A stretch of DNA of 64,000 nucleotides. Origin: Candidatus Omnitrophota bacterium. Its GTDB lineage: Bacteria; Omnitrophota; Gorgyraeia; B26-G9. The stretch lies in NCBI GenBank assembly GCA_043826565.1, contig JBDRPX010000034.1:1096-65095 (forward strand), read 5' to 3'. The translations under genes were made by a program, and so were the position numbers. Position 1 is the stretch's first letter; the number at the start of each line of letters is the position of its first letter. The notes beneath the pieces are model-generated. The model saw only the letters and a list, made by a program, of their open reading frames with translations. It did no database searches and was not told the DNA's origin. Positions 1,156-48,893 of this stretch are shown here, in pieces.

Positions 1156-1290
1156 TTATATTTAACCTAATCTCCTATATTTAAAATAGTGTTAAAGTAT
1201 ATCATGTTTATCTTTGCCTTGCAAGCAAACCGCTGCTTTTAAAATTTACACAACTAATTGTAAAAACTCAAGATGGAATATTTTTATAAT

Positions 1291-1319
1291 TTTATATCCT
1301 TGACAGTGATTAGCTGCGA
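1291..1319 (+). promoter_or_regulatory. Sigma70-like promoter for fhs (TTGACA-N17-TATAAT)
   Basis: cTTGACAgtgattagctgcgaatTTATAATga is a near-consensus -35/-10 pair with a 17-nt spacer, about 120 nt upstream of the fhs start. Confidence 0.4.
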
Positions 1320-1438
1320 ATTTATAATGATTTTAACTGTTATAATAATTGACCCGCCACAAGACGCGGCGAGGTTTAATTCGTCTCGCCATTGTCCGCT
1401 TAAAGCGGCCGCTTGGCGGACTCATTAAAGGAGATATC

Positions 1439-3133: not shown

Positions 3134-3220
3134 TCTTGTCACAGGTCCCAGGTCACAAGAAAAAACTAAATTTTTTTATCAAACCTGCAACCTGAGACTT
3201 GTAACCTGCAACCTTAAATC

Positions 3221-5110
3221 ATGTTTAAGATTTTAAAATTATACCTTGAGCAAAATTTAAGCCCGGAAAAACTTTTCACAGAACTTGTCGAATTCGGGTA
3301 TGAACGAACCGGAAACATATCGCAAAAAGGTGAATTTGCCGGCCGCGGCGATATTATAGATATTTATCCGATCAATTATGAAAATCCCGTACGTATTGAA
3401 ACCGAGTTTGACAAAATCACAAAAATATTTTCTTTTTCAGCCATCAGCGGCAAAAAAGAACAAGGACAAAATCCGCTGATTATTCTGCCGCATAAGACAT
3501 TCTCTTCTGCTGTTACCGCCGGGCGATTATCCATAAACAAATTTGAAGAACTGGAGAAAGGCGATTTAGTTGTTCATGTTGATCACGGGATCGGTAAATA
3601 TTTAGGGATCACAGATCTTAAGGGTAAACCGCATATAAAAATTGAGTATGCGGAAAAGGATAAACTCTACGTACCCGTAAAACAAAAAAATCTTCTGCAA
3701 AAATATATCGGGTTTACCGGGAACTCTCCCCGTCTGCATAAACTCGGCGGAAAAATCTGGCAGAATACCAAAACAAAAACAAAACAGGGTGTTACCAGCT
3801 TTGCTTTAGACCTATTAAAAATACAGGCAAAACGTGCCGCTCTTTCCGGCTATGCTTTTCCTAAAGATACAGACTGGCAAAATGATTTTGAAAAAAAATT
3901 CCCTTATCAGGAAACTCCGGATCAGCTAACTGCCAGTGAAGATGTTAAGCAGGATATGGAGTCATCCAAACCCATGGACCGGCTGCTTTGCGGTGATGTC
4001 GGTTATGGAAAAACAGAAGTAGCTTTTCGGGCGGCCTTTAAAGCTCTCATGGATAATAAGCAGGTGGCCATGCTCGTGCCGACAACAATCCTCACGGAAC
4101 AGCACTATCATAATTTCACCGAACGCGTCCGGGACTTCCCGGTAAATGTACAAATGCTCAGCCGCTTTAAAAAAGCCTCCGAACAGGATGAGATCGTTAA
4201 AGATTTAAAAAAAGGAAAAGTTGACATCGTGATCGGCACACACCGCCTTTTGTCCGATGATATCCGGTTCAAAAATTTAGGCCTGATCATTATCGACGAA
4301 GAACAACGCTTCGGGGTAAAAGCAAAAGAAAAATTAAAACATTTAAGAGAACTGGTCGATGTCCTCACACTAACCGCGACACCTATCCCCCGCACTTTAT
4401 ACATGTCTCTTTTGGGGGTTAAAGATATGTCAACCATAAATACTCCTCCGGAAAAACGTCAGCCTATTGAAACGTTCGTGTGTGTATATGACGAAGAAGT
4501 GGTGCGGAATGCTTTGCAAACCGAAATCGAAAGAAAAGGGCAAGTCTATTTTATCCACAACCGGATAAAAGATATTCAGACAATTCATGAAAAAGTAAAA
4601 AATCTTGTTCCCCAAGCCCGCGTTGCCATCGGACACGGCCGCATGCATGAAAAAGACCTCGAGCAGGTAATGATCGACTTTATCGAACATAAAATCGACA
4701 TTTTAATATCAACAACCATAGTTGAATCCGGGCTCGACATTCCTAATGCCAACACATTAATTGTCAATAACGCGCATAATTTCGGCCTGGCCGATCTTTA
4801 TCAACTGAGGGGAAGAGTCGGCAGATTCGACAGAAAAGCCTATGCTTATTTTCTTACTCCCAAGCACGCAACCTTCAATCCGGAAGCAAAAAAGCGCCTT
4901 AAATCAATACAAAAATTTACCGCCTTAGGCTCAGGATTTAAAATTGCCATGGAAGACCTGGAAATCCGCGGTGCCGGTAACCTGCTCGGTGAAAAGCAGC
5001 ATGGCTATATAATATCCGTAGGTTTTGATTTCTATTGCCAGTTACTCTCCGGCGCCATTGATCAACTGAAAAAAGCAGAAATCAGAAGTCAGAAAACAGA
5101 TAACAGATAA
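3221..5110 (+). CDS. mfd: Transcription-repair coupling factor, short form; retains the RNAP-interaction domain and SF2 helicase core but lacks N- and C-terminal modules
   Basis: GEFAGRGDIIDIYP is a UvrB-homology / Mfd D2 remnant. VVHVDHGIGKYLGI...LYVPV is the CarD/TRCF RNAP-interacting domain. The helicase motifs CGDVGYGKTEVA, DEEQRFGV and QLRGRVGR follow. At 629 aa it is far shorter than the roughly 1150-aa E. coli Mfd, and there is no room upstream (an 87-nt gap after fhs). Confidence 0.75.
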   Translation: MFKILKLYLEQNLSPEKLFTELVEFGYERTGNISQKGEFAGRGDIIDIYPINYENPVRIETEFDKITKIFSFSAISGKKEQGQNPLIILPHKTFSSAVTAGRLSINKFEELEKGDLVVHVDHGIGKYLGITDLKGKPHIKIEYAEKDKLYVPVKQKNLLQKYIGFTGNSPRLHKLGGKIWQNTKTKTKQGVTSFALDLLKIQAKRAALSGYAFPKDTDWQNDFEKKFPYQETPDQLTASEDVKQDMESSKPMDRLLCGDVGYGKTEVAFRAAFKALMDNKQVAMLVPTTILTEQHYHNFTERVRDFPVNVQMLSRFKKASEQDEIVKDLKKGKVDIVIGTHRLLSDDIRFKNLGLIIIDEEQRFGVKAKEKLKHLRELVDVLTLTATPIPRTLYMSLLGVKDMSTINTPPEKRQPIETFVCVYDEEVVRNALQTEIERKGQVYFIHNRIKDIQTIHEKVKNLVPQARVAIGHGRMHEKDLEQVMIDFIEHKIDILISTTIVESGLDIPNANTLIVNNAHNFGLADLYQLRGRVGRFDRKAYAYFLTPKHATFNPEAKKRLKSIQKFTALGSGFKIAMEDLEIRGAGNLLGEKQHGYIISVGFDFYCQLLSGAIDQLKKAEIRSQKTDNR

Positions 5111-5207
5111 AAAAGATAAAAAAGAACTTAAAAGAACTCAAAACACTATTGTTTTACGCCTGTTCCTGTGATATAATTATAATTCGTACAATCTTAGAGG
5201 ATAAAAC

Positions 5208-6182
5208 ATGTTTAAACAAACTCTCCTATTAATCATTATTTTAACAGTATTTTTCGGCCAAGATCATGTGCAGGCACAATTTACCGAAAAAATACTGGCG
5301 GTAGTCAACGGGGAAGCAATAACCCAAACCGATGTTGACGAAATCCTTGCGCCGATCTATCTCCAATATAAAAGTTCCTATCAGGGCCCGGCGCTTATAA
5401 AAAAAATGGAGACTGCTAAAACGGATATTTTAAATCAGCTTATTGAAGATAAACTTCTCCTGCAGCAAGCGCTAAAGCAGGAGCTTACGGTAGACGAAAA
5501 AGAGATCGACCAATTAGTTAAGAAACTTGAAAGCAATTTTCAAACCGCAGAAGAGTTTGAGAATATACTAAAAACCCAGGGAATCACCTTAAGCGATCTA
5601 AAAAAAAGATATAAAGAGCAGCTGCTGATTAAGAAAGTCGTCGGCAAAGAAATATTAAGCAAAATACTCATCTCTCCTAAAGAAATCTCTGCGTATTATG
5701 ATCTCCATAAGGAAGATTTCAAAGTCCCCGAACAAGTCAAACTAAGAAATATCTTTATTGAAACATCCAATGTCGCGGAAGAAAATTTGGAAATTGAGAA
5801 AAAAGTAAAAGATACATACGAGCAGTTAAAGAACGGCGTGGAATTTGTCGAGCTGGTAGAAAAATATTCCGAAGCACCTAATGTCGTTGATGCCGGAGAA
5901 ATGGGATTTATGAAACGCGGCAGTATGCGCGAAGAAATCGAAAACGCGGTTTTTGATTTAGAACCGGGTAATTTCACCTCTCCGATAAAAACCGCGTCCG
6001 GATATTATATCTTTAAAGTAGAAGGAAAAAAAGAAGCGCAGATCCAGCCGATGGAAAAGGTTCAGAATGAAATCCGCAATGCTATATTTCAAGAGAAGTC
6101 CAAACAGAAACTTAAAAAATGGATAGATGAATTAAAAGAATCAACCTTAATTGAGGTAAAAAAAGATGAAAAAAAACGCTAG
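5208..6182 (+). CDS. surA: SurA-like periplasmic chaperone / parvulin-type peptidyl-prolyl isomerase
   Basis: Signal peptide, a SurA N-terminal domain, and a parvulin PPIase domain (GEMGFMKRGSM...SGYYIFKV). It sits in the conserved surA-pdxA-rsmA arrangement. Confidence 0.75.
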   Translation: MFKQTLLLIIILTVFFGQDHVQAQFTEKILAVVNGEAITQTDVDEILAPIYLQYKSSYQGPALIKKMETAKTDILNQLIEDKLLLQQALKQELTVDEKEIDQLVKKLESNFQTAEEFENILKTQGITLSDLKKRYKEQLLIKKVVGKEILSKILISPKEISAYYDLHKEDFKVPEQVKLRNIFIETSNVAEENLEIEKKVKDTYEQLKNGVEFVELVEKYSEAPNVVDAGEMGFMKRGSMREEIENAVFDLEPGNFTSPIKTASGYYIFKVEGKKEAQIQPMEKVQNEIRNAIFQEKSKQKLKKWIDELKESTLIEVKKDEKKR

Positions 6183-7218
6183 AATAGGAATAACCCTGGG
6201 AGATCCGGCCGGGATTGGAACAGAGATAACTTTAAAAGCATTAAAAGACAAAAAATTACGGGCATCCGCTAGTTTCGTGCTTATCGGAGACTATAGTAAT
6301 GTCGTACATACACAGCGTCAACTTGATATGTCGCTTAACTATCACATCCTTTCGGATATCGGACGCCTTAATCTAAGCGATGAGTTAATAAACTTCGTTA
6401 ATCTCGGCAATATCACATTTAATATCCCTTTTGGAAAAGTTGACGAACGTTGCGGCAAGGCAGCCTATGAATACATTAATATGGCTTGTCTTTTACTCCG
6501 CTCACATAATAACCTCGATGGTTTGGTTACCGCTCCCATTAACAAGGAAGCCATGAACCTGGCCGGATTTAAGTACCAGGGACATACCCAGCTTCTGGCG
6601 CAGCGTTTTAATGCCCGCTATGTAAGGATGATGTTCGCGGCTGAACAAATGCGTGTGGTTCTCGTTACCATACACATACCGCTTAAAAATGTCCCTGGAT
6701 TAATAACAAAAAGAGAAATACTGGACACTATTTTTGCCACACATAGAGCAATGAACATACATTTTAAAATCAAACGGCCTAAAATTGCGGTTTGCGCTTT
6801 AAACCCGCATGCTTCGGAAGACGGTTTATTCGGGACTGAAGAAAAAGAACATATTATTCCGGCAATAGCAAAAGCCCGGTCGCAAAAAATAAAAGTCGAA
6901 GGCCCGGTTCCCGCGGACATTGCTTTTTGGAAAGCAAAACAAGGCGAATATGACGCGGTTATTGCCATGTATCACGATCAGGCGTGTATTCCGTTTAAAA
7001 CTTTATATTTTGACAAAGGAGTTAATGCCACTCTCGGACTGCCTTTCGTACGCACCTCACCTGATCATGGAACTGCTTTTGATATCGCCGGTAAAGGAAA
7101 AGCCGACCCTACGGCAATGAAGGAAGCGATCAAGCTGGCCGTGGAAATGGCTTCAAATATGCCGCGCAAGCGCAAGAAAAAGAAAGTATATGTCCCAACC
7201 ATCAGCCGTTCTCGCTAA
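6166..7218 (+). CDS. pdxA: 4-hydroxythreonine-4-phosphate dehydrogenase
   Basis: PdxA motifs ITLGDPAGIG and SPDHGTAFDIAGKGKADP. Confidence 0.85.
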   Translation: MKKNARIGITLGDPAGIGTEITLKALKDKKLRASASFVLIGDYSNVVHTQRQLDMSLNYHILSDIGRLNLSDELINFVNLGNITFNIPFGKVDERCGKAAYEYINMACLLLRSHNNLDGLVTAPINKEAMNLAGFKYQGHTQLLAQRFNARYVRMMFAAEQMRVVLVTIHIPLKNVPGLITKREILDTIFATHRAMNIHFKIKRPKIAVCALNPHASEDGLFGTEEKEHIIPAIAKARSQKIKVEGPVPADIAFWKAKQGEYDAVIAMYHDQACIPFKTLYFDKGVNATLGLPFVRTSPDHGTAFDIAGKGKADPTAMKEAIKLAVEMASNMPRKRKKKKVYVPTISRSR

Positions 7219-8038
7219 ATATAAAGTTCGCCCTAAGAAAAGGCTTGGACAAAACTTTCTGGATGATGAAAATGCGCTTAATCAAATTGCCTCCGCCGCC
7301 GGAATATCTAAAGAAGATCATGTCTTGGAGATCGGCGCCGGTATTGGGAATTTAAGTATTCTTTTAGCCGAAAAAGCCGGTAAGTTCTATGCTTTGGAAA
7401 AAGATAATTCCTTAGAAAAAATACTCAAAAAAACACTCGTCAAATCAGATAACTCTAAAATTATCATATCGGATATTCTCCAATTCAACTTAGACAGTAT
7501 TTATAAAGACAAAAAGCTTATCGTTGTCGGAAATCTTCCTTATTATATAACCTCTCCGATACTGCTGCATTTAATAAAGCAAAAAACCTGCATAAAGACA
7601 ATCCTGATAACCGTGCAAAAAGAAGTCGCCAAACGGATTACCGCCTCTGCCGGGAATAAGGATTACGGAAGATTAAGCTGCCTTTTACAATTTTACGCCA
7701 AAGCAGAATTACTGGAAATATTTCCTAAAAGACTCTTTATCCCTCAGCCGAACGTGGATTCCGCTCTGGTAAAGCTTGATATTTTGGACAGCCCGTCCAT
7801 TGACGTAAAATCAGAAGAAATGTTTTTTAAGGTCGTAAAAGCTATATTCAGCCACCGCCGAAAAACACTGCTAAACAGCATGCTCGCCTCCGGCAGCCTG
7901 GGATTAAGCAAAGAAGTTTTGGGAAAAACTTTAGAACAGCACGGGATATCTCCGGCAATCCGCGGAGAACAACTAAGCCTTAAAGAGATCGGTAAACTAG
8001 CCGATGCTTTTGACTTAGTTATCAAAAAGATCAAATAG
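7190..8038 (+). CDS. rsmA: 16S rRNA (adenine1518/1519-N6)-dimethyltransferase
   Basis: LGQNFL, the EIGAGIGNLS SAM-binding motif and GNLPY. Confidence 0.85.
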   Translation: MSQPSAVLAKYKVRPKKRLGQNFLDDENALNQIASAAGISKEDHVLEIGAGIGNLSILLAEKAGKFYALEKDNSLEKILKKTLVKSDNSKIIISDILQFNLDSIYKDKKLIVVGNLPYYITSPILLHLIKQKTCIKTILITVQKEVAKRITASAGNKDYGRLSCLLQFYAKAELLEIFPKRLFIPQPNVDSALVKLDILDSPSIDVKSEEMFFKVVKAIFSHRRKTLLNSMLASGSLGLSKEVLGKTLEQHGISPAIRGEQLSLKEIGKLADAFDLVIKKIK

Positions 8039-9716
8039 AACTGCCGGTCATAATCTCATTCTGTAACCCGAAGAAAGGCACCAAATCCAACACAATACTG
8101 CTTTGCACCATATCTTCAGTAACTAAGCCGCTTTCTAAAACTATCTTGCGCAGATACCGGTCCCATCTTACCTGCAATTCCTCATCAATAAATTTAAAGC
8201 CGCTGCTCAGGTAAAATAGTATTGCTTTAGAACTAAGTCCGTCCGGATTTGCTATTTGCCAACTGGACATCCTGACTTTTTCTGCTCCTAGAACTGTCCG
8301 GACCATTTCCAAAAATGCGCGAAAAGCACTTTTACTTCGGCTGCCGTGATGACGGTATTCTTTAAAAACATGAAAAGTAAGCACTGCTGTTTTCGGCTCG
8401 TTAGATATCAAACCCAACTCTACACTTCCATAACCAATAACTTCATCATTATGCATAACCGCCAAATAGTATGCTTCCGGGTCATAAACTCCAGGATATC
8501 CCTCATCCTGCCCAAGTAATATTGTTTTAACATCGTCTTTACCCTCAGCGATATAAACATGATTAGCATCCACATCCAATGCTGAGTTAAGTATTGATCT
8601 GTTACGATCCTCTAAGGCAGTTGCCAGATCATCCGCTAATCTCCTTGCCGATAAATCCCCGGCTTTTTTCACAGTAACCTTAGAAATCATATTATTATCG
8701 ATATTGATCGATGCCCGCGATGCTAAATTCTCAATCAATGTTCCGGTAAACAGTGCCGCCTGATGCGGATTAATATGCAGGGGAACTCCTAAATAATGAC
8801 GGCTTAACTCTGAACTATTGATAAAAAAACACACCTCGCTGCGTTCACAAACCGATATTATCGGCGGCGCCATTTGCTGAAAACTGTCTTTAGCTTTGTA
8901 CTCATCCATTTCGGCAGCTGTCCCCACAATAATATCAATATCCAGATCGGTAACTCCTCCGTTAACCGGAGAACTCTCCAGCTCTCTGAGTCCCAATATT
9001 GTTTCCGGAATATTAACATGCTTCGTTTTCGCATTATCCGGCGGTCCTAAGCGGTTTATTTTAACCAAATGGCTCGCCATCCCTGTAGTGACCAAATATC
9101 CCAGATAATCTGCCGGGCTCAATTTTGAAATACCGAATTCAATTTCTTTCTGCCAATCACAATTTTGTTTACGGTGAAGCGGTTTGTTCTGATGCGGCCC
9201 GAAATCTCCGTGCGCGTCAAGATGACGCCACTCTACCCCGCCGCGATCAATAATCTCCTGGGCTTTTTCCCGATAATGTTCAAAGAAAAAAGAATATGAC
9301 ATATTATGCTGGCCGCCCCAATAGATCTTTTTATTATTCGCAAGCGTTATCACAACATAATACTCTCCGCCGACTTTATATTTCGTGCCGTTCAAATAAA
9401 CTTCCAGCACCGGATAAATAACTGCCTGTCCCGGTTTTTCAAAATCAAACTGTTTCTGTTCGATAACCGCGTCAGAAAAAATAAATTCCTTATCAATCTT
9501 AATAACAAAATCCTCTTCAACCAAAGGTCTGGGAATAGAATCACTGTTGTATTTAGGGAGAAGATCATCTAAGGCATTGAAAAAACTTTTCTTAAGCAAA
9601 ACCTGCTCAATATTTATTGAAGGAGATAATTTATCTGTAGAAACAGGTCCGGCAAATAAATTTGCCGGTATCGATAGAACTAATATTATGAGGATTATTT
9701 TTTTTAATAATTTCAT
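8031..9716 (-). CDS. Secreted protein with C-terminal GNAT acetyltransferase fold; member of the VQxFL-leader / LSP / [AS][IL]-COOH family
   Basis: Likely start at the internal ATG (MKLLKKIILIILVLSIPANLFA signal peptide). The mature N-terminus is GPVSTDKLSPSINIEQVLLKKSF. The C-terminal roughly 110 aa resemble a GNAT domain (VIGYGSVEL...HGSRSKSAFRAFLEMV). The tail is ...TGSSI. Confidence 0.6.
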   Translation of the reverse strand: MKLLKKIILIILVLSIPANLFAGPVSTDKLSPSINIEQVLLKKSFFNALDDLLPKYNSDSIPRPLVEEDFVIKIDKEFIFSDAVIEQKQFDFEKPGQAVIYPVLEVYLNGTKYKVGGEYYVVITLANNKKIYWGGQHNMSYSFFFEHYREKAQEIIDRGGVEWRHLDAHGDFGPHQNKPLHRKQNCDWQKEIEFGISKLSPADYLGYLVTTGMASHLVKINRLGPPDNAKTKHVNIPETILGLRELESSPVNGGVTDLDIDIIVGTAAEMDEYKAKDSFQQMAPPIISVCERSEVCFFINSSELSRHYLGVPLHINPHQAALFTGTLIENLASRASINIDNNMISKVTVKKAGDLSARRLADDLATALEDRNRSILNSALDVDANHVYIAEGKDDVKTILLGQDEGYPGVYDPEAYYLAVMHNDEVIGYGSVELGLISNEPKTAVLTFHVFKEYRHHGSRSKSAFRAFLEMVRTVLGAEKVRMSSWQIANPDGLSSKAILFYLSSGFKFIDEELQVRWDRYLRKIVLESGLVTEDMVQSSIVLDLVPFFGLQNEIMTGSSI

Positions 9717-9744
9717 ATTATTTAATAGCAAATTACAATCAACA

Positions 9745-12700
9745 TTATATCGCTTGCTCAATAACTTCAAAACTATAACCATGTTCCATTCCAGTTCTAT
9801 CCCCATGAGAAACAGTTTCAATATTAGCTATAAATTGCTGCCTTATCGAATCCGAAGGAATAACATCATCCATTTCTACCGAGGGAACTCCTTCCAAAAG
9901 AGAAAGTAAATTCCTTATACGGGAGATCACACCCTGAAAAGCCATGGCAGAATCACCGTTTTTTTCTGTTCTTATATTTGTGTCGGCAATCCCGATAAGC
10001 GTACGCTGTAACAGCGGTTCCAAACGAGCTTTTAAAATCGGCAGTTCATAAGCTGAATAACTATTAAAGGTCACGTCCGCATTTACCCAGCTTGTATAAG
10101 TATACGCCAGCTGAGCGTTTCTTCGCAACGGCCATTGCTGGACAATATCAACTACTTTTCTGCCCAAATTTACATGGCTAAGTATATGCCGCATAAAACG
10201 CAGATCCAATGATGTCAATGGACGGTTTCCGGATAATTTAAAATTCGGCGCAGTATTCACGAAAACACGGTAAAGCTGTTCATCTTTTAAAACTCCGGAT
10301 TTTCCGGCGATCTCATCGGATAAAGCATAATCCCCTTCGATCACATACAGATCATCATTTTCCAGAGTTATTGTTTCCCTGACAAATTCTCCGTCTTTTC
10401 TGACCACTACATGCAATACCTTAATATCCGGATCTAAAATCCGGCGAATAATATCCTTCATCCGGATGACCCGGGCATTATATATCTCTTCCTGGTTAAG
10501 CTCTTTTTCCTCCTGAAGAAAATCTGTATACTGCCTTAACAGCATATCAATATGGATCATCTTTACTTTTCTGCCTTTTTCCTTTAAATCCTGAGCTACC
10601 CTTTTGGAAAAAGATATTTTTCCGCTGGTAGTCGGCCCGCTGACCAAAACAAAACCTCTTTTTCCCGGCGAAAATTCTTCATCAATACTATCTACAATAC
10701 GCCCGATCTCTTGGGTATGCTTTTCCTCGTTCTTTCGGATCAGTTCACCCAGTTTATTTTCCCGGCAAACCTGCTGTAAATGCTCCAGCGTACGCGGCTG
10801 AAGCCCCAGCTCACCATATCCCCGGTAAGGAATTCTGCCGGTCTTAGAAAATATCCTCTGCAGCCGCGGACTGCGGGCAATTTCCGCATCAATAACTCTG
10901 GCCATACTCAAAATAAAAGCCGCCTGACGCAGATCCGTCTTATATTTTTTAGCGATTTCTAAAACTGTGATCGTTTCGCTTTCAATCCGCTCTTCAAGCA
11001 TTTTATCCACACTGGTTTCTTCCCAGGCCTTACCTTCAATATTCTGCAGCCATTCAAAATAAGAAACCGTAACCCCTCCGACATTTGCTAAAATATCCGG
11101 AATGATCAGAATACCTTTATTTCGCAAAATCGGATCCGCTTCCGGAGTAGTCGGATTATTCGCTAATTCCAGAAGAATATCACAATTAACATCTGCGGCA
11201 TTAGCTATAGTGATCTGATTCTCTATCGCCGCCGGCACTTTTACATTTGTATGCACTTTCCAGAAAAGCGACTGTTTTTCTTCTTCCTGTTGTAAAATTT
11301 GATACACCCAATCCTGATAATCACCAAATCTTTCATCGATCACAAGTTCGGAAGCATTTTTTAACTGCCGGAATTTCAAGGTAACCTTTCCGCCTTTTTT
11401 ACTGACATATCCGTTTTCGATCAGATTTGCCAAAAGCTCCTTTGCATCCGAAGTAATTCGGGAAAAATCCGTTTCCGCCACACTGCCTTTTAAAAATTGC
11501 GTTCCGGTCCTGTCCAGAAAATCCTGGGAAACTGTACTAAACTCGTATAGTCGGTCATCGGACTTTTTACCCAGCACTTCCATTAATTCTTCCAAAGGAA
11601 TACCCTGAGGATTATAAAGCGTTCCGGTATGGTCCTGCCATAAATTCAACTGCGCTCCGGCAGTATTAATTGAACACGCGTAATACTCTCCCACATTACC
11701 TCCGCCCTGAACTCCCATGGTCATTTCCCGAATATCTTTACTAAACAATGCCTTTGCCCTCGCACTCAATTGACGGCCAACCGCATCACTGGAAACATCT
11801 ATTAACTGCGGAAAATGATTCAACATTGACCGCAAAGCTAAAAATCCGCCAAACCCGGTAGCTTTAGTCCTGCCTTTTGATCCGCCTTTCTCCACCGGCT
11901 TACCGGTTATAACTCCCAGTTCCGAGGCATCCAGAATGCCGAACATATCCGCGCGCTTAAGTCTTAAATAATAATTTAAATATGGTGTTTCTAATGGATC
12001 TTCGGAATTTTTAGATTTTACTTTCAGCAGCCCTCTTTCCATTCTCTTATCATCTATTTTACGGCTCCTGGCCTGGATTCTTAAATATTCATCCACAAAA
12101 ACAGCCATCATATCTGCTCCTGTACCCACATCCGGTGCCGGTACATCAATATAAGGTCCCACTGCTCCTTTTTTGGTAAGCTCCCGGGCAAAACCCCGGA
12201 CAATATATGCTTTAAGAGTGTCTGCCTTTTCTGCATAATCCGCGCTTTCCTGTAAGATCTTCTTAATTTCCTGATTTAAAAATTCTCTTAGTCCCGTATC
12301 TTCACCAGTACTGGTATAATGCATCAGTTCACCGAGAGCTTCTAAAAGAACCTCCTGGATATCCCGCCCCAGACTGTCTATAAAACCTTTCCTATCTTCT
12401 ATCTCCTGCCCGATAGCCTGAGAAAATCGCCTTAGTTTTTCTGCTTTGTCTTTTAATCCTTTAGCCTCTTTTTCATACCCTGAGATAACATTATTAACTT
12501 TATCTTCGATAACAACATCGCCTTTTCCTCCGCCGTAAGGGATACCGATCACGGCATTTTTTACCGTCATCAATGTCGCCAAACCCGCAGCTGTAGCCTT
12601 TGCCTCTTCCAATGTTTCTCCATGAACAAGAAGCCAGCGGAATCCGCCTTTAGACGGCCCCAAAGCATCACTTTGCGAAACACGAAATCCCCAAACTTTT

Positions 12701-13110
12701 ATTTTTTTTCCATCCGGCATAGGAATTTTGAAAGTAACGGTAGTAACTCTATTCGGATCCAGCAATATATTTCTCGGCTCTTTTAAACGGCTGGCTACCA
12801 GCAGATCATGTACCTTTCTGGATAAAAAACCTTTTTCATTAATAGACTCATCAACAAATACCGGATCAAGTCCGATCATTTCTGCCGCGGCCTGATAATG
12901 GATTTTTGCCGATTCCAGAATAGAAGGAGTTTCCCCGTCATGACGCGCAGCCAATATCATTTCTTCATTTCCCGGCATAAACGCCGCTCTGACAGCATTA
13001 ATCTCCAGGTGCACTGTCGGCGCTAAAGTATCACTTTGACGCATATCTGCCCAGGCAATCCCCGAAGAAAGAAATGTTTGTATAGTCACTGCTGCAATAA
13101 TCCTTAGCAT
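9745..13110 (-). CDS. Secreted fusion protein: Glu/Leu/Phe/Val-dehydrogenase-like domain plus uridine-kinase/PRK-like P-loop domain; family member
   Basis: Signal MLRIIAAVTIQTFLSSGIAWA; mature N-terminus DMRQSDTLAPTVHLEINAVRAAF. GDH-family signatures are present: LGPSKGGFRW (the K-G-G-x-R catalytic loop), IPYGGGKGDV, and the GGGNVG Rossmann motif. Downstream, LVSGPTTSGKISF (Walker A), YVIEGDYAL and LDLRFMRHI resemble uridine kinase / phosphoribulokinase. The tail is ...EVIEQAI. Confidence 0.65.
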   Translation of the reverse strand: MLRIIAAVTIQTFLSSGIAWADMRQSDTLAPTVHLEINAVRAAFMPGNEEMILAARHDGETPSILESAKIHYQAAAEMIGLDPVFVDESINEKGFLSRKVHDLLVASRLKEPRNILLDPNRVTTVTFKIPMPDGKKIKVWGFRVSQSDALGPSKGGFRWLLVHGETLEEAKATAAGLATLMTVKNAVIGIPYGGGKGDVVIEDKVNNVISGYEKEAKGLKDKAEKLRRFSQAIGQEIEDRKGFIDSLGRDIQEVLLEALGELMHYTSTGEDTGLREFLNQEIKKILQESADYAEKADTLKAYIVRGFARELTKKGAVGPYIDVPAPDVGTGADMMAVFVDEYLRIQARSRKIDDKRMERGLLKVKSKNSEDPLETPYLNYYLRLKRADMFGILDASELGVITGKPVEKGGSKGRTKATGFGGFLALRSMLNHFPQLIDVSSDAVGRQLSARAKALFSKDIREMTMGVQGGGNVGEYYACSINTAGAQLNLWQDHTGTLYNPQGIPLEELMEVLGKKSDDRLYEFSTVSQDFLDRTGTQFLKGSVAETDFSRITSDAKELLANLIENGYVSKKGGKVTLKFRQLKNASELVIDERFGDYQDWVYQILQQEEEKQSLFWKVHTNVKVPAAIENQITIANAADVNCDILLELANNPTTPEADPILRNKGILIIPDILANVGGVTVSYFEWLQNIEGKAWEETSVDKMLEERIESETITVLEIAKKYKTDLRQAAFILSMARVIDAEIARSPRLQRIFSKTGRIPYRGYGELGLQPRTLEHLQQVCRENKLGELIRKNEEKHTQEIGRIVDSIDEEFSPGKRGFVLVSGPTTSGKISFSKRVAQDLKEKGRKVKMIHIDMLLRQYTDFLQEEKELNQEEIYNARVIRMKDIIRRILDPDIKVLHVVVRKDGEFVRETITLENDDLYVIEGDYALSDEIAGKSGVLKDEQLYRVFVNTAPNFKLSGNRPLTSLDLRFMRHILSHVNLGRKVVDIVQQWPLRRNAQLAYTYTSWVNADVTFNSYSAYELPILKARLEPLLQRTLIGIADTNIRTEKNGDSAMAFQGVISRIRNLLSLLEGVPSVEMDDVIPSDSIRQQFIANIETVSHGDRTGMEHGYSFEVIEQAI

Positions 13111-13144
13111 CTTTCGATTCCTTGAAACCATCTCTCATTCTCCT

Positions 13145-14218
13145 TTAAATAGAATATTCTACTAATTTATTTATTTCCAAATCCGCTAAAAATTTCCCCA
13201 CAACTTTTAAATCATCCGCCGATAAATACTCAAGATCTTCCCTGAGTCCGTTATAATCATCTTTCCCATGTATTCCCCAGCCGATCTTAAAAACAAAAGC
13301 TTTTAAATATACTTCGTCATTTGTTCCCAGCATTTGTCTGGCAATATTAATAAGCTTATCCCGGCGATCCGCATATTCCCAGGCATTAAATTCATCTTCT
13401 CCAAAAAAATGTCCGCGCCTTAACGAATTTACCACAACTGCTTTTACATACGATTGATAATCCCGTTTATTACCCTGCAGGTTTCTCTTCTCAAAAAAAG
13501 ATTTTACCATATATTCTCTGCCGGAAAACCGTTCCGCAAGATCATTGATCGTCACTCCCGGACGCGGAGATAAAACCAATCCTTCCATAGGCTGTCGATG
13601 ATACCAGAGAAAAAACCGGAGTTCTTTCATTGTGATATCTCCTATAATATCTTCCGCTTCCCACTTACTTCTCCAATCCGCAAATTTTTTAAGCCCGTGC
13701 TTGCTTTGCAGCAAACTTACCAGTTCATCATATCGCCGTCTTATCCGAAAATCACGCATATTTACACTGCGCGTAAGCCGTTCCGGAGAAAACATCTCAC
13801 TAATTATATCCCGCCAATTATAAAGAATGTCCATTTCACTAAAAAACTTGATCCCAATACTTTTAACTAAAAAACTCTCTTGAAGTTTTTCAATTATCTG
13901 CTTGCGGGTATCGGAAACCAGTCCTCCATATTCTCCGCCTTTAAGCCAGACTATCGAAAACCCCTGATCTTCAACATCTCTCTGTTTAATTTCATCCAAT
14001 ACGGCTAAAAGATCTGCTTTATTATTCTGTAATAACGCAAAACTATTTTTAAGAACTTCCCCATTAACTTTAATCTCCGGAGATAATGTATCAATTTGCG
14101 GCTGCGCACAAGCATTTCCTAATATCAAAAACGCCTGGACAAACACCAGGCAAATAATCCCCGCATTATTATTAATTTTCACAATTTTTATTAATCCTTT
14201 TCTAAAGGGATCGCGCAA
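13145..14218 (-). CDS. Secreted hypothetical protein; family member
   Basis: Signal ...AGIICLVFVQAFLILGNACA; mature N-terminus QPQIDTLSPEIKVNGEVLKNSF; tail ...NKLVEYSI. No recognisable catalytic domain. Confidence 0.5.
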   Translation of the reverse strand: MRDPFRKGLIKIVKINNNAGIICLVFVQAFLILGNACAQPQIDTLSPEIKVNGEVLKNSFALLQNNKADLLAVLDEIKQRDVEDQGFSIVWLKGGEYGGLVSDTRKQIIEKLQESFLVKSIGIKFFSEMDILYNWRDIISEMFSPERLTRSVNMRDFRIRRRYDELVSLLQSKHGLKKFADWRSKWEAEDIIGDITMKELRFFLWYHRQPMEGLVLSPRPGVTINDLAERFSGREYMVKSFFEKRNLQGNKRDYQSYVKAVVVNSLRRGHFFGEDEFNAWEYADRRDKLINIARQMLGTNDEVYLKAFVFKIGWGIHGKDDYNGLREDLEYLSADDLKVVGKFLADLEINKLVEYSI

Positions 14219-14921
14219 TTAAATTCTGCTTCTGATCATTTCGAAAATCTCTTCTTCGGCTTCTTACCGGGCTCTTTAATCCTAAAGCTCTCGCTAAATG
14301 TCTTTCAAAACCAAAAATCCGGCCTTTATCGCCTTTTGCCCGTAATGCCTCTCTGACCTCCCGCACAGACACAGGAAAATACGCATGGACGGAATCAGTA
14401 AGCAAGAAAACTAATTCCCGCACCGTAAAATTGTCGATCGTCTCCGTTATTCCGGGATTTGAAAGAATCCCGACAGCAGTAAAATATCCTAAGCTTTCGG
14501 CTATTTCCGGATCAACATCTTCTAAATCTTCGGCCGGATCCCATTCTTGAGCAAGCATAGCTCTTTGATGGCGATGCTCTCTTCTTTCTAACATGATTAA
14601 ATGATCTTGAGATGGCCGCTTTCCCCGGCGGTTATTCAAGCGTCTGGATATTCCGGTTAACCGGGGAGCATTCTGATGCTGCATCTGGGCAATAGTTGCT
14701 TCATATTCATCGTCCGAAAGTTTTTTAGCGGCAAGCTGGGAAAATACCTGCTGCAGCAGCTGCGCATTAATTGATATTTCCGGCGATAAAGTTGATGGCT
14801 GTTCCCGATCAGATAAAAAAGAAATTTCTCCGGCTAGGGCAATATTCATTGTTAGAAACAATTGCACAAGCACACATCCGATAACCCGCAAATACAATCT
14901 TCTCATTAAATCCTCCTTCAT
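14202..14921 (-). CDS. Secreted hypothetical protein; family member
   Basis: Signal MRRLYLRVIGCVLVQLFLTMNIALA; mature N-terminus GEISFLSDREQPSTLSPEISINAQLLQQVF; tail ...NLIARSL. It overlaps the downstream family member by 17 nt. Confidence 0.5.
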   Translation of the reverse strand: MKEDLMRRLYLRVIGCVLVQLFLTMNIALAGEISFLSDREQPSTLSPEISINAQLLQQVFSQLAAKKLSDDEYEATIAQMQHQNAPRLTGISRRLNNRRGKRPSQDHLIMLERREHRHQRAMLAQEWDPAEDLEDVDPEIAESLGYFTAVGILSNPGITETIDNFTVRELVFLLTDSVHAYFPVSVREVREALRAKGDKGRIFGFERHLARALGLKSPVRSRRRDFRNDQKQNLIARSL

Positions 14922-15020
14922 TCATTTTCCAATTATTTGTTTATTATAATTTCTTTTTATCTTTTACTTTTTTAATCCCTATTCCCTATACGCTAACCGC
15001 TCTACGCTATACGCTGATTT

Positions 15021-16481
15021 TTATATCGCCTGCTGCACAAGTATCGGCAGTATCGCCGCCTGTTCGTCAAACTCCGGTAAACCATCCTCTGTTTCAACAC
15101 CGATAACTACATCCGCGGGAAAAATTGAAGGCTCTCCATTCAAAACCGCCTGCCATTCCGGCCTTTGTATTTCAAATAATATCGCCGCCAAATCCGATAA
15201 ATGGTCTGTTTGACGAAGCGCACGATAAGCCTGCTCCAAAGTCCCGGGAACATCCGGATGTGATTTTTTCCATTGCCTGGTTTTGGTATTGATAATAAAA
15301 TAACTTGAGGAACCGCCGGAGGCTTTATACGCGATTGCTATCTCACGGCCTCCAGACCTTGCCATTATTTCTACTTTAGTAATCTTAAACGAAGATGCTG
15401 TTGGCGAATCAGCAACGCTTATGGGAATTATCTGCTTAACTTCTGTTGCCATCTCTACAGAAATTGTACTCTTTTTGGAATCTGCTGTTCCTTGAGCCGC
15501 CGGATTAACATCAGCATCAGTTTCTCCATCAAGCGGCTGTAATCTGAAACCGGTAAAACTTCCGCTCGCATCCGGATCAGCATCAGCAGGATCAGCATCA
15601 GCAGAATCATCAGCCAATCCATCTTCATATTTATCCGCCATCATACTTTCAGCAATCGCAGTATCCATGGCTTCTGTTATCCGGTCTGTATGTTGTTTAA
15701 ATACTTCACCATCAATATGTTTATGTTGGAACAAAACCAGTAAAACCCTGTTCTCCCGGGAAAGCCCCTGCTCTCTTTGCTCGGGCATATTCATATTTTC
15801 TTTTTGCACATCAATTATAAGCCCGGATATATGCGCCACAGAAGTGTAGAATGCTGCCTTATTTCGCAATATCCCTGCGGAGATAACCGCGATATTATTT
15901 TTTATCCGGATAGCTCTGGTCCGCTGGATTTCTTTACCTTGCATACGCAATAGAAAAGTACCGTCCTTTTCTATTCCAAACGCGCAATGCGCCGCCTGTT
16001 TCGGCAAATGTGTTACTATGTATAATTCCGGAGCCATAACAATTGTTTTTCCGCTATAGCTATATAACCGCATCCTTGCCTGTATAACCATCTTTTTAAG
16101 CGCTTCATCCTGTTCGGCATTACCCAGACTACTCGCGGTTTTTTTGCCGTCTTTATATACTTCTATAGAACACTCTCCGGTTTTCCCATTGAGAATTTTA
16201 ATTTTAATATATTCCCCGCCCGGAGAACGCATTGCCTTTAAAAACGAGTGGTGTTCTTGCGGAGTTATATCTCCTTCTGATGAATAGTTTGTTCTTAATT
16301 CCAAATTGTACGCTGCGAATTTTTGGGCAAATTTTTGCAAATCAGAAATACTGACCTTTGGCGCCAGGGTTGCACTCAGTTCATTCTTACGCGTTGACAA
16401 ATCCGCGGCCTGCGCGTTCTGCACACACAGGAATACTTGAAACACCATCCACACTGCTGTTTTCCTGATTATTTTTTTCAT
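15021..16481 (-). CDS. Secreted hypothetical protein with an acidic (D/A/P-rich) linker; family member
   Basis: Signal MKKIIRKTAVWMVFQVFLCVQNAQA; mature N-terminus ADLSTRKNELSATLAPKVSISDLQKFAQKF; tail ...LPILVQQAI. Confidence 0.55.
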   Translation of the reverse strand: MKKIIRKTAVWMVFQVFLCVQNAQAADLSTRKNELSATLAPKVSISDLQKFAQKFAAYNLELRTNYSSEGDITPQEHHSFLKAMRSPGGEYIKIKILNGKTGECSIEVYKDGKKTASSLGNAEQDEALKKMVIQARMRLYSYSGKTIVMAPELYIVTHLPKQAAHCAFGIEKDGTFLLRMQGKEIQRTRAIRIKNNIAVISAGILRNKAAFYTSVAHISGLIIDVQKENMNMPEQREQGLSRENRVLLVLFQHKHIDGEVFKQHTDRITEAMDTAIAESMMADKYEDGLADDSADADPADADPDASGSFTGFRLQPLDGETDADVNPAAQGTADSKKSTISVEMATEVKQIIPISVADSPTASSFKITKVEIMARSGGREIAIAYKASGGSSSYFIINTKTRQWKKSHPDVPGTLEQAYRALRQTDHLSDLAAILFEIQRPEWQAVLNGEPSIFPADVVIGVETEDGLPEFDEQAAILPILVQQAI

Positions 16482-16527
16482 TTTTCTCCGATCTTTACAC
16501 TTTACACTTTTAACTTTTAACTTATTT

Positions 16528-17982
16528 TTATATCGCTTGCTGCACTAATTGCGCACCAGTAACATTAATGGGAAATATTACTTTTTCCTGAGTCAGCACA
16601 GGAACTATGTTTGTCTGAATAATCCGGGGATTACACGGTAAAATAATAATAAATTTTGCTCCGGTAATTTCACCCTGAATATCCCGGCAATTCTCTGCGC
16701 TTAAAGTTCCGCCAAAATATCTTTCAATGATCCGGCGGCAAAGCGAAAGTCCCAGACCATGAGCTGTCCCATTACCCGCTCTGGTGCTGAATCCTTCGGA
16801 AAAAATCAGATCAATTACCGCAGCTTCCTGGTTATCGGCATTTTCATGAGCTTCTGTCCACATTCCCAATACCTTTGCCTGCTTGATCAAATCAGTAATT
16901 AAAAACCCCTTCCCATTATCCGTAAATTCAAATATTATGTTATCTTTTGTCTTTTTCGCTTCTACAGTACAATCAAACATTTTATTTTGGCCGTTCATGG
17001 CATGGGCTAATAAATTTCTTTGTAAATTTTTAACAACAAATTCAAACCCATCGCGATATCCAAAATATTCTAACGGCTCAATTTTCCCTTTATACAAAAC
17101 CTGCGCTTGCACAACTTCCGCCAGATCAAACCGTTCCTGTTTAATGCCTTCGATAACCACATTAAGCCGTTTAATCATAAAATCAATAAAATCAAGCGCA
17201 CCCTGTGCCGCCCTTTTTAGAAATTTATCAGCCCCAGGCCGTTCCGCAATTTTTTTCAGCCATTCATAAGATGTATTAACCTCATAAACCGAGCTTAAAA
17301 GTACCATTACACCTCGCGGATCAGTAACATGATTATGCGCAAGCATATCTTTAATTCTGGATAATTTGGTAAATAGATCCCGGCAAATAGAAATAATTCT
17401 TTCTATTTCTTCAAGATCATCACTTTTAACAACATCCAGATTGTTTTCCTGATGCAAAAGATCTCCCAGCTGATGAAAAACCATACCAAACTCAACATGA
17501 ATCCGCTCAACTGTAGAAAATCCCATTTCTTTGCGATTAAAAATTGCCGCGGCATATTCACCAAAATCAGTAAAACTGTATCTTGTTCCCCCCTTTGCTC
17601 CTTTGTTTTTAAGATCCGGGATAAGATATCCCTTTTCTACAAGCTCGCTAAATCTCTGTTCAATCTCTTCAACAGATAAATTCCGGGCCGCAACCCGCTT
17701 AAAACGCCTCGCGGTTATCCTGGCCTCCTGGGCAACTTTATAGAGATCGGCATTCGTAACAATTTTTTCAAAAACATCGATCCAGTCACTTTGCTCTATA
17801 GTAATTTTTTGAACATCAAACTGTTGAAATGCGGACTGAAACTGCGGGATAAAAATATTTAGTTGCGGAGAGAGATTGTCTTCTGCCCAAACAACCTGCC
17901 CAAGCATAAGCATTTGAATAACAATAGCAATAAGCACTATGTTTAATCTTAATTTTTTAGATATAAAAAAACCGGTTTTCAT
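16528..17982 (-). CDS. Secreted histidine-kinase-like (GHKL) ATPase domain protein; family member
   Basis: Start taken at ATG 17982, which has a GGAG 6 nt upstream. Signal MKTGFFISKKLRLNIVLIAIVIQMLMLGQVVWA; mature N-terminus EDNLSPQLNIFIPQFQSAFQQF. The C-terminal HATPase_c shows G1 DNGKGF and G2 GLGLSLCRRI boxes and a possible degenerate H-box, LAHNHVTDPRG. The tail is ...AQLVQQAI. Confidence 0.6.
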   Translation of the reverse strand: MKTGFFISKKLRLNIVLIAIVIQMLMLGQVVWAEDNLSPQLNIFIPQFQSAFQQFDVQKITIEQSDWIDVFEKIVTNADLYKVAQEARITARRFKRVAARNLSVEEIEQRFSELVEKGYLIPDLKNKGAKGGTRYSFTDFGEYAAAIFNRKEMGFSTVERIHVEFGMVFHQLGDLLHQENNLDVVKSDDLEEIERIISICRDLFTKLSRIKDMLAHNHVTDPRGVMVLLSSVYEVNTSYEWLKKIAERPGADKFLKRAAQGALDFIDFMIKRLNVVIEGIKQERFDLAEVVQAQVLYKGKIEPLEYFGYRDGFEFVVKNLQRNLLAHAMNGQNKMFDCTVEAKKTKDNIIFEFTDNGKGFLITDLIKQAKVLGMWTEAHENADNQEAAVIDLIFSEGFSTRAGNGTAHGLGLSLCRRIIERYFGGTLSAENCRDIQGEITGAKFIIILPCNPRIIQTNIVPVLTQEKVIFPINVTGAQLVQQAI

Positions 17983-18310
17983 TCTCAGCTCCATAGCTGT
18001 TTTAAACGACAATTTTTCACACACTTATTACAAAGTTAATAAAAGCTCTAAAGTATACCATAAGTTTATATATCCTGCAATGTCAGAACCGGACTTTATG
18101 AAAAAATTTTATCACACCTAACATATTGAAAATAAATGTGATATAATTTAGGTAGTAAATGTTTTTTATCATTTGAAAGACCCCTTGATTCTGGGATTTA
18201 AATTCAGTAAAAAAATAGTGCGCGTCACTTGTAAACTATATATTAATATGGTATACTTTTTTAACTATTTTAACTCGCAATTAAACTTGATTCTAACAAG
18301 GAAATTATTT

Positions 18311-21748: not shown

Positions 21749-21799
21749 AAAATAGCGTGTAGCGTAGAGCGAGTAGCGTTTAGAAATCCTCTTAGCAGA

Positions 21800-29420: not shown

Positions 29421-29433
29421 TTTGACCTTTTGA

Positions 29434-31654: not shown

Positions 31655-31721
31655 CATCGACAGATACCTCTTTATTTCCAATATCTAAAATAGTTCAAGT
31701 TCTGGGAGAAATATGATAGTG

Positions 31722-35191: not shown

Positions 35192-35204
35192 AACAAGATC
35201 CCTA

Positions 35205-41246: not shown

Positions 41247-41440
41247 GCCAAATCAAAATTCAAAAAGCAAAAGTCAAAAATACAAGGCAAAATTAAAAAG
41301 TTATTTACCCAATTTTTATTTTTCACTTAGCATTATTTTTCTTAAGAATTTTATACTCAATAATATTCAACAATTGTATCTTTAAACTTTTGATTTTTTA
41401 ATTGCACTTTTGAGTTTTGATCTTTGACTTTTGAATTTTC
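41247..41440. repeat. MITE-like inverted-repeat element, copy A, between pstB and phoU
   Basis: Arms of about 50 nt: caaaattcaaaaagcaaaagtcaaaaatacaaggcaaaattaaaaag, and on the other side cttttgattttttaattgcacttttgagttttgatctttgacttttgaattttc. They are imperfect reverse complements with an AT-rich core of about 100 nt between them. The right arm is 37/39 identical to copy B (54708-54747). Confidence 0.4.
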
Positions 41441-44646: not shown

Positions 44647-44659
44647 AAAGCTCCTTGAG

Positions 44660-45517: not shown

Positions 45518-45578
45518 TATCTCCCCTTTCTTCAAAGTCTAAATACAATATTTAATATTTAATTTATTGTATTAGGCG

Positions 45579-45612
45579 ATTGTGACAATTGTGTGACAAT
45601 TGTGTGACAAGT
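45579..45612 (-). promoter_or_regulatory. Pho-box array: three direct TTGTCAC heptads at 11-bp periodicity, upstream of pstS copy 1
   Basis: The reverse strand reads TTGTCAC-ACAA-TTGTCAC-ACAA-TTGTCAC. This is the same 7+4 architecture as the E. coli Pho box (CTGTCAT-N4-CTGTCAY). Confidence 0.5.
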
Positions 45613-45638
45613 TTAAGGAGATAAGGATCGGTTATATT

Positions 45639-46304: not shown

Positions 46305-46317
46305 AAAACCCCTTTTC

Positions 46318-48889: not shown

Positions 48890-48893
48890 TTAT

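Follow-up and report, generated by a model that had tools for sequence, protein, structure and literature searches.

The 64,000-nucleotide (nt) stretch of contig JBDRPX010000034.1 analysed here (hereafter the window), from a Candidatus Omnitrophota genome, encodes on its reverse strand a glutamate dehydrogenase (GDH) fused to a diverged domain of the uridine kinase (Udk)/phosphoribulokinase (PRK) family, termed UdkL here, behind a predicted signal peptide. This protein is one cargo of an undescribed Omnitrophota family, in which a shared N-terminal leader and a shared six-residue C-terminal tail are placed around otherwise unrelated enzyme domains. Its complete open reading frame (ORF; 9745-13131, 1128 amino acids (aa) plus stop) is identical to a database protein, P0001, from a Candidatus Omnitrophota metagenome-assembled genome (MAG), which NCBI names [quoted passage not shown]. 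The NCBI version of 1121 aa begins at Met8 of the ORF, i.e. at position 13110, which was also the upper coordinate given by an initial annotation made from the DNA letters alone; the ORF itself extends to 13131, and an AGGAG is found 8 nt 5' of the ATG at that position. Translation may possibly start at either site, and the hydrophobic leader is kept with both.

The first 28 residues (13048-13131) form a putative Sec-type signal peptide, with a basic n-region (MVSRNRKMLR, +4), an h-region (IIAAVTIQTFLSSGI) that includes a family-conserved Gln, and A26-W-A28 at positions -3 to -1, followed by Asp. Judged on the sequence, the leader conforms to the Sec/signal peptidase I rule of a basic n-region, an h-region of 10-15 residues, and small residues at -3 and -1, and it appears to be, as initially annotated, a canonical Sec signal, here conserved across a large family. 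The N-terminal peak of a hydropathy scan (KD19) reaches 1.5 over this short h-region (~13-15 residues), while the sole other peak (1.61 at residue 674) falls within the GDH core, on the GILIIPDILANVGGVTVSY segment that aligns to the GDH of Thermotoga maritima; the scan showed no further transmembrane segment and no hydrophobic peak at the C-terminus. Past the predicted cleavage site, the alignment of eight leaders outlines a conserved “TL[SA]P box” in the mature N-terminus (residues 34-51, DTLAPTVHLEINAVRAAF; 12979-13032), within which L36, P38, and F51 are invariant. At the opposite end, the protein terminates in FEVIEQAI-COOH (9748-9771), the last six residues of which match the consensus drawn from the other family members. 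The match of P0001 to the leader profile described below (64.4 bits, E-value 6e-13) is circular, its own leader being among the eight used to build the profile, and independent support comes instead from the alignment of this leader with those of neighboring genes and of P0002, a homolog from another Omnitrophota MAG. Both ends (residues 1-66 and 1104-1128) have a predicted local distance difference test score (pLDDT) below 50 in the full-length AlphaFold (AF2) model, as would be expected of linear signals. Packing of the box and tail on each other or on the protein body finds no support in this model, although low confidence from a shallow alignment is weak evidence.

The GDH-UdkL gene belongs to a run of seven consecutive genes (8031-21748), six on the reverse strand and one divergent, all of which encode the same leader layout: a basic n-region, an h-region that contains a conserved Gln (V/I-Q-x-F-L), and an A-x-A-type site (..LIQAFL..AWA), followed 5-25 residues past this site by a [ST/D]-L-[SA]-P-x-[IV]-x-[IV] box and then by spaced Phe residues. 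All seven also encode a tail, VIEQAI in the case of GDH-UdkL. On the reverse strand, this gene is flanked on one side by P0072 (8031-9716, 561 aa; leader ..DKLSPSINI.., degenerate tail ..MTGSSI, no Pfam match) and on the other by P0053 (13145-14182, 345 aa; tail LVEYSI), P0054 (14202-14906, 234 aa; LIARSL), P0055 (15021-16481, 486 aa; LVQQAI), and P0056 (16528-17982, 484 aa; LVQQAI, with an HATPase_c domain at 2e-12), and the divergent gene on the forward strand encodes P0052 (18311-21748, 1145 aa; LIEQAI, with a PEP-utilizers_C domain at 4e-33). The first of these had been listed as an ORF at 8031-9821 with a TTG start at 9821, overlapping the 3' end of the GDH-UdkL gene; this overlap is an artefact of the ORF listing, because P0072 starts at the ATG at 9716, 29 nt past the GDH-UdkL stop codon. 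Outside of this cluster, neither the leader nor the tail pattern was found among the 252 stop-to-stop ORFs of the window.

A similar array exists in the MAG encoding P0002, where seven consecutive genes at the P0002 locus (L001) carry both leader and tail (LVEQAI, IIEQAI, LVNQAI, LIGESI), while the next gene, a GH116, has neither. A second contig of the same MAG (L008) is syntenic with the window, with fhs, an mfd-like gene, surA, pdxA, rsmA, a leader/tail island, and miaA. Between rsmA and miaA, the window contains its seven leader/tail genes (8031-21748) and L008 contains five different ones (210-10717), the phosphoenolpyruvate (PEP)-utilizer gene adjoining miaA being the only cassette found at the equivalent position in both. 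The same site with differing cassettes indicates a fixed location with variable content, and the rsmA-miaA island thus looks like a variable-content hotspot. Period-7 tandem repeats of about four copies (CTATACG/TAGCGTG, TTTAACT) were observed in the window at 14986-15015, 16494-16523, and 21753-21783, beginning a few bases past the stop codons of three leader/tail genes, and TAGGGTA-like runs likewise follow tail-coding ends in L001; these repeats could serve in termination, regulation, or recombination. Also in L001, the paralogous leaders of three genes (2455-4407, 10001-15415, and 15502-16761) share a near-identical n-region of ~22 aa (MK.HKQKNYILRTKSGEAKLWRR.) in front of unrelated bodies, which suggests recent gene conversion or a shuffling of leader-coding 5' ends.

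A profile of 60 positions, built from the eight leaders and searched exhaustively against 1.84 billion representative proteins, matched 171 representatives at E-value ≤1e-3, nearly all of them at residues 1-70. Six large proteins with many internal DTLAPTV-type repeats (P0051, P0068, P0097, P0124, P0133, and P0138) were dropped as false positives; these repeats may be strand-A starts of bacterial Ig-like domains, a resemblance hinting at a possible role of the TL[SA]P box as a single beta-strand, which would dock by strand addition. Among the 144 family candidates, 133 have the h-region Gln and 104 end in [AS][IVL], those without a tail being mostly short sequences that we take to be fragments. 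The tail consensus reads L (-6), I/V (-5), E (-4), Q (-3), A/S (-2), and I (-1), i.e. [LIV][IV]EQ[AS]I-COOH, and leader and tail co-occur when complete ORFs of the window and of the fetched loci are considered (Fisher p = 6e-17). Charges flanking the h-region are +3.1 before and -0.9 after it across the family, and an A-x-[AGSCT] motif was found in 98 of the 144 candidates, which is weak evidence for a cleavage site since the pattern was searched unanchored over residues 13-70. Every family member with a source name is from Candidatus Omnitrophota. Domains identified with Pfam in 66 members include S-adenosylmethionine (SAM) methyltransferases, HEAT repeats, HATPase_c, GGDEF, class-V aminotransferase (Aminotran_5), ARMT1-like phosphatase, PEP-utilizers_C, GT1, phosphoglucomutase (PGM), HAD, GNAT, and HTH_8, to which the arrays of the window and L001 add an ATP-grasp plus methyltransferase and a CheR-like domain. 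These cargo domains are of the cytoplasmic type and require nucleotides or cofactors. The presence of a Sec signal on an enzyme with NAD(P)- and ATP-dependent chemistry had been flagged as unexpected, and the surprise was justified, but it turns out to be one case of a systematic leader-plus-tail tagging across the phylum.

Neither end of the GDH-UdkL protein has a Pfam or NCBIfam match, these two collections hold no model for either signal, and a full-text literature search on the tail sequences returned nothing relevant. Several known types of leader were considered and rejected. A twin-arginine (Tat) leader does not fit, as the GDH-UdkL protein has no RR pair (S/T-R-R-x-F-L-K) and RR or RRR occurs in some family leaders only; nor does a lipoprotein leader, as the protein has no lipobox (L-[AS]-[GA]-C) and no Cys, with AWC|G found inconsistently in some relatives. 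A prepilin-type leader was dismissed since no G|F-T-L-x-E occurs in the sequence, and a double-glycine/C39 leader, suggested by the AWAGG of many leaders, was set aside as the principal interpretation since a classical h-region precedes the GG, which is not universal. At the C-terminus, LPXTG, PEP-CTERM, and GlyGly-CTERM tags, in which the motif precedes a transmembrane helix and a basic tail, and the type IX secretion system (T9SS) C-terminal domain (CTD), a beta-sandwich of 80-100 aa, were discounted because conservation is limited to the last six residues, ending with the free carboxylate. That the conserved tail might be an element of the DNA or RNA was ruled out by synonymous variation in the tail codons, which implies that the constraint acts on the peptide. 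Two-signal systems combining Sec with a T9SS CTD, LPXTG, PEP-CTERM, or GlyGly-CTERM nevertheless follow the same logic of a C-terminal tag on unrelated and often arrayed cargo. The Omnitrophota tag differs from these in being six residues at a free carboxylate, without a transmembrane helix, basic tail, or beta-sandwich, in being paired with a further conserved box near the start of the mature protein, and in that no cognate sortase- or T9SS-like machinery was found.

Between these two signals, the protein consists of a GDH core, a linker, and UdkL. The core (residues 66-753; 10873-12936) matches both Pfam domains of the Glu/Leu/Phe/Val dehydrogenases well above their gathering thresholds (ELFV_dehydrog, PF00208, 6.2e-54, 183.7 bits vs 23.4; ELFV_dehydrog_N, PF02812, 4.5e-24, 85.1 bits vs 25.3). 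Its closest solved structures are the hexameric GDHs of Thermotoga, Pyrococcus, and Thermococcus (T. maritima GDH, 2tmg, 1.3e-58), so that profile searches assign the N-terminal half to a dehydrogenase fold, in line with the initial annotation, and all of the motifs it had listed (KGGxR, GxPYGGGKG, and GGGNVG) are present. The core motifs are K161-G-G-F-R165, K191, G196-IPYGGGKG-204 (GGGK203G), PAPD334, G476-GGNVG-481, and GGVTVS690. In an alignment of ten sequences, comprising this protein, six fusion homologs, and three Scalindua relatives, the invariant positions include K161/G162/G163/R165, K191, K203, D334, S418/R421 (GGSxGR), Q475/G476/G478/N479/V480, D500, N658, and G685/G686/V687/S690. 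By motif, K161, K191, K203, D334, and S690 correspond to K89, K113, K125, D165, and S380 of the Clostridium symbiosum GDH. K161 and K191 are the lysines for the substrate carboxylate, K203 and D334 the catalytic Lys and Asp, G476-G481 the Rossmann GxGxxG, and S690 the Ser that selects glutamate. Together, the invariant residues cover all that is needed to bind glutamate and the dinucleotide and for catalysis, and the N-terminal two-thirds of the protein is thus a true GDH, apparently glutamate-specific and catalytically competent.

The PDB match is divided into five blocks (query residues 121-211, 312-349, 404-428, 463-518, and 625-749), and the gaps between them define four insertions (~212-311, 350-403, 429-462, and 519-624). 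Insertion 1 (residues 212-311; 12199-12498) is modeled as a long helical hairpin of ~100 aa (H210-252, H256-270, H280-320), insertion 2 (residues 350-403, ..TPYLNYYL..; 11923-12084) is common to the Verrucomicrobial homolog P0006 and to Scalindua phosphoglycerate kinase (PGK)-GDH fusions, and insertion 4 (residues 519-624; 11260-11577), within the NAD(P) domain, is modeled at low confidence as a small alpha/beta element. The full-length model has a pLDDT of 74 and a predicted template-modeling score (pTM) of 0.76. The equivalog cut-off of the NCBIfam model GdhA_Arch (NF040817) is not reached (245 bits vs 750), because the insertions split the match into four stretches. Compared to the archaeal and Thermotoga hexameric “small” GDHs (2tmg/1b26; GdhA_Arch), the protein has the same pair of Pfam domains and the same KGGxR, GGGKG, PAPD, GxGNVG, and GGVTVSYFEW motifs, and the C-terminal 125 residues align without gaps, whereas ~300 extra residues in four insertions, a kinase-like fusion, a signal peptide, and end-tags set it apart. 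By analogy only, the mammalian GDH, with its antenna and purine-nucleotide allostery, also combines a helical protrusion with a link to nucleotides; in the protein studied here, however, the hairpin is placed elsewhere, after GGGKG in domain I, and nucleotide binding would sit in a separate, fused domain.

A conserved helical linker (residues 754-825, ..PYxGYGELGL..; 10657-10872) connects the core to UdkL and its C-terminal helical extension (residues 826-1103; 9823-10656). Fold assignment of this C-terminal third needed a family alignment and a structural model, because a single-sequence PDB search with it yielded noise only (designer PPR proteins and PilT, E-value >0.01). A single-sequence homolog search with the domain recovered three proteins only and missed P0001 itself, a limitation of the word index. 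A model of UdkL built from an alignment of the fused homologs and three proteins combining an ATP-cone with PF00485 (pLDDT 87.4, pTM 0.87) had human UCK2 as its top Foldseek match (E-value 2e-7, TM(target) ~0.6), followed by Thermus Udk, pantothenate kinase (PanK), and PRK. Profiles point in the same direction: the family alignment matches UCK2 at 3.7e-10, a profile of the seven fused domains, searched against 5.8 billion proteins, matches PF00485 members 330-560 aa long (2e-36 to 1e-20), and BLASTP aligns UdkL end to end with the ATP-cone plus PF00485 protein P0048 (4e-16). NCBIfam models for a nucleoside/nucleotide kinase (3e-7) and for udk (2.4e-4; 20.8 bits vs a cut-off of 220) also matched, while the Pfam model PF00485 did not match at E-value ≤0.1. 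As judged from the model and these profiles, the C-terminal ~300 aa have the Udk/PRK P-loop kinase fold that had been suggested for them.

“Uridine kinase” is however an assignment of fold and not of function, because the canonical Walker A GK[ST] has been lost, as apparently have the nucleoside-binding motifs. The Walker A segment quoted in the annotation, S831-GPTTSGKIS-840, is indeed present, but it is non-canonical (G832-PTTSGK838-I839; 10615-10638), with no Ser or Thr following the Lys: in the fused subfamily, the residue after GPxTSGK is I, Q, or A, none of its seven members has GK[ST], and P0005 has lost the Lys as well. Canonical relatives (e.g. P0048 and P0199) carry GPSSSGKTT, DNYF, YDFE, and FDFxxGxR, the last three of which are missing from the fused subfamily; D862 aligns with the DSFY/DNYF aspartate, while equivalents of YDFE and FDFxxGxR are gone. 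In the 2004 structures of UCK2, the nucleoside-binding and catalytic residues are reportedly D62 (in DSFY), D84, and Y112/F114/H117. Hence, while the catalytic Lys and Asp of the GDH are retained and invariant, the substrate-binding motifs of Udk apparently are not. UdkL is most similar to a long bacterial PF00485 subfamily (330-560 aa, P0199-P0206) and to ATP-cone plus PRK proteins (P0048-P0050), with which it shares the fold over an end-to-end alignment, and to the former also through a C-terminal helical extension ending in ..IPxDSIxRxFIG. In common with PF00485, it keeps the P-loop Gly and Lys, the Glu of hhEG (E932), the LID Arg-x-x-Arg (R978, R981), and the ADV motif, and it further retains D862, R1004, and D1019; it differs in having GK[I/Q/A] instead of GK[ST], in lacking DNYF, YDFE, and FDFxxGxR, and in scoring below the Pfam PRK threshold. 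From this pattern of conservation, UdkL probably remains able to bind a nucleotide phosphate, whereas uridine kinase activity is unlikely, and we lean modestly towards a regulatory or structural pseudokinase over an active kinase.

The fusion, for which the initial annotation knew of no described example, is real but not unique: GDH-UdkL is a conserved and recurrent Omnitrophota module. Its contiguous GDH-linker-UdkL core is found in six further proteins (P0002 to P0007, including P0002 at 1804 aa, P0005 at 1483 aa, and P0006 at 800 aa), of which P0002-P0005 and P0007 are from Omnitrophota or unnamed metagenomes. P0006, from a Verrucomicrobiae MAG, is the bare core without a signal peptide, and a hidden upstream one is ruled out by the mere 8 in-frame codons between stop and start. 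Scanning GTDB, with each species represented by one genome and an alignment of four sequences as query, added seven loci, six in Omnitrophota MAGs and one in a MAG labeled Planctomycetia, and several of these lie within giant ORFs of at least 4408, 6890, 6963, and 2769 aa. At four loci (L011, 1499-14722; L012, 266-20935; L014; L016), the module is inside Omnitrophota ORFs of at least 4.4-7 thousand aa that run off their contigs and have a signal peptide that is a variant of the leader (..LIATFIAYDISWA..). The next-nearest GDHs are fusions of ~1100 aa from anammox bacteria (Scalindua/Brocadiia; P0008-P0047), composed of a PGK, a ComEA-like helix-hairpin-helix (HhH), and a GDH of the same clade, for which a literature search on the Scalindua GDH-PGK fusion found nothing. 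These have insertion 2 (..TPYLDxYL..) and a phosphotransfer-type partner in common with GDH-UdkL and belong to a wider PVC-related radiation, but the partner is an N-terminal PGK plus HhH rather than a C-terminal Udk-like domain, and they have neither signal peptide nor tail.

Giant proteins with cytoplasm-type domains that are predicted to be extracellular or to bear a signal peptide have been described in Omnitrophota (“Archaeovorins”, 10.1101/2023.11.21.568195; Nielsen & Lui, 10.64898/2026.06.07.730766). Besides belonging to the same phylum, they share with the cassette family HEAT, HATPase_c, GGDEF, HAD, methyltransferase, GT1, PGM, and PEP/PPDK domains, whereas GDH-UdkL and its neighbors are of normal size, with one or two domains. 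No GDH, TL[SA]P box, or EQAI tail is mentioned in either of these preprints. In the window, an 859-aa ORF on the reverse strand (36797-39376) has a KaiC/RecA-like N-terminus, as judged by eye, and a PPDK_N domain (2.8e-44); PPDK domains occur in the giant proteins as well (10.1101/2023.11.21.568195; 10.64898/2026.06.07.730766). Two overlapping reverse-strand ORFs (32339-35275, 978 aa; 35205-36611, 468 aa) have hydrophobic N-termini without leader box or tail, and the longer, the one of the two that was scanned, gave no Pfam match. A MacB/HlyD/TolC-like set was recognized by eye 6-10 kb from the island (ORFs at 27456-31681). Further along the reverse strand (41440-49772 and 51490-53992), two tandem pstSCAB-phoU-like operons precede a porin-like gene and a phoR/phoB-like pair, again assigned by eye, from N-terminal sequences; for a small genome, such a duplication of phosphate uptake is unusual.

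Considering both termini, we find it slightly more probable than the alternatives combined that GDH-UdkL is an exported multidomain protein whose leader, box, and tail are read by a lineage-specific sorting step. Residues 1-28 would direct Sec translocation, with cleavage predicted after A26-W-A28. The TL[SA]P box, by then close to the N-terminus of the mature chain, and the hexapeptide at the free C-terminus may act as linear signals, by analogy with the two-signal systems above, and could be read by a sorting or secretion step specific to the lineage. Cargo might then be delivered to the cell surface, the medium, or a host or prey cell, where, speculatively, the GDH would use glutamate and NAD(P) not supplied by the periplasm of the producer, and UdkL, as a nucleotide-binding regulatory or structural pseudokinase, might tune the GDH in response to nucleotides. 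Loci resembling type II secretion systems are conserved in Omnitrophota (West-Roberts et al., 10.1101/2023.11.21.568195), and host dependence or predation has been proposed for the phylum (10.1101/2023.11.21.568195; 10.64898/2026.06.07.730766).

Several points weigh against this reading. Cleavage and translocation are predicted from sequence rules, and none of the three loci (window, L001, and L008) showed a secretion or sorting gene beside its island. P0006, lacking a signal peptide, indicates that GDH-UdkL can work in the cytoplasm, while P0004, P0005, and P0007 have different leaders and tails (..TSA, ..RAA, and ..IAA), so that the signal pair is restricted by lineage. UdkL could also, despite its degenerate P-loop, bind phosphate and transfer it in a non-canonical way. 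Finally, no bacterial periplasm or exterior is known to hold NAD(P) or ATP, and catalysis outside of the cell would thus need a host compartment or lysate.

The main rival explanation, which we consider unlikely, is a membrane-tethered cytoplasmic enzyme, with the N-terminus as an uncleaved anchor or as a helix targeting internal membranes, and with the box and tail assembling a multi-enzyme complex. This would readily accommodate the cytoplasmic cofactors (NAD(P), ATP, GTP, SAM, and PEP) used by all cargo domains of the family, along with the leaderless P0006. The near-universal h-region Gln would likewise be unusual in a disposable signal peptide and suggests helix-helix recognition, and the 2026 preprint interprets many long Omnitrophota proteins as inner-membrane-anchored with cytoplasmic domains (10.64898/2026.06.07.730766). 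However, the charge imbalance across the h-region places the protein body outside according to the positive-inside rule, no second transmembrane segment would return the chain to the cytoplasm, and a short h-region that precedes a polar c-region with A-x-A is typical of signals that are cleaved and not of anchors.

It is improbable that the protein is instead an ordinary housekeeping GDH, assimilatory or catabolic, with a nucleotide-sensing domain and an irrelevant or mis-called leader. Its intact active site, the cytoplasmic GDH-UdkL of a Verrucomicrobiae MAG, and the allosteric ATP-cones carried by the closest relatives of UdkL, which are consistent with nucleotide sensing, would all agree with such a role. 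Yet the leader is kept at the protein level in the 144 candidates and in every gene of the array, and is thus not a start-codon artefact; the gene resides in an island whose membership differs between genomes; the module is embedded in giant signal peptide-bearing proteins of other MAGs; and the score against the GDH equivalog model falls far short of its cut-off. A pseudo-enzyme scaffold, in which both folds would be oligomerizing or structural modules of a surface assembly without catalysis, by analogy with the HEAT/TPR scaffolds of Omnitrophota giant proteins, could account for the degenerate UdkL (including the missing Lys of P0005), the four large GDH insertions, and a proposed location devoid of cofactors, but is just as improbable, given that the glutamate, catalytic, and dinucleotide residues of the GDH are invariant across homologs ~30-50% identical, which points to selection for catalytic chemistry, or at minimum for ligand binding, and that the LID arginines and P-loop glycines of UdkL are invariant too.

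Returning to export through a lineage-specific sorting step, the GDH-UdkL protein itself is less important than its context, and the leader/tail family is the more important finding. As an enzyme, GDH-UdkL nonetheless represents an unstudied architecture, with intact GDH residues, four insertions, and a degenerate Udk-like domain, which may couple glutamate oxidation to nucleotide sensing. More than 100 clusters of “hypothetical proteins” can now be grouped by their termini, and the leader/tail pair points to an undescribed sorting route for normally intracellular enzymes. The giant-protein preprints could not say whether the combination of a signal peptide with cytoplasmic domains reflects a real topology; small proteins of one or two domains that share a sequence-defined leader and a six-residue tail make this question testable. 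More tentatively, and with a likelihood that we place somewhat short of even, the leader, TL[SA]P box, and [LIV][IV]EQ[AS]I-COOH tail may constitute an Omnitrophota-specific sorting code that exports cytoplasm-type enzymes, among them the GDH-pseudokinase, GHKL ATPases, GGDEF proteins, methyltransferases, and PEP-utilizing enzymes, into or onto host or prey cells. If so, the cassette proteins would be metabolic effectors of an episymbiotic or predatory nanobacterium, forming a rapidly turning-over arsenal, and the same sorting code would be used by the multi-kiloresidue proteins of Omnitrophota.

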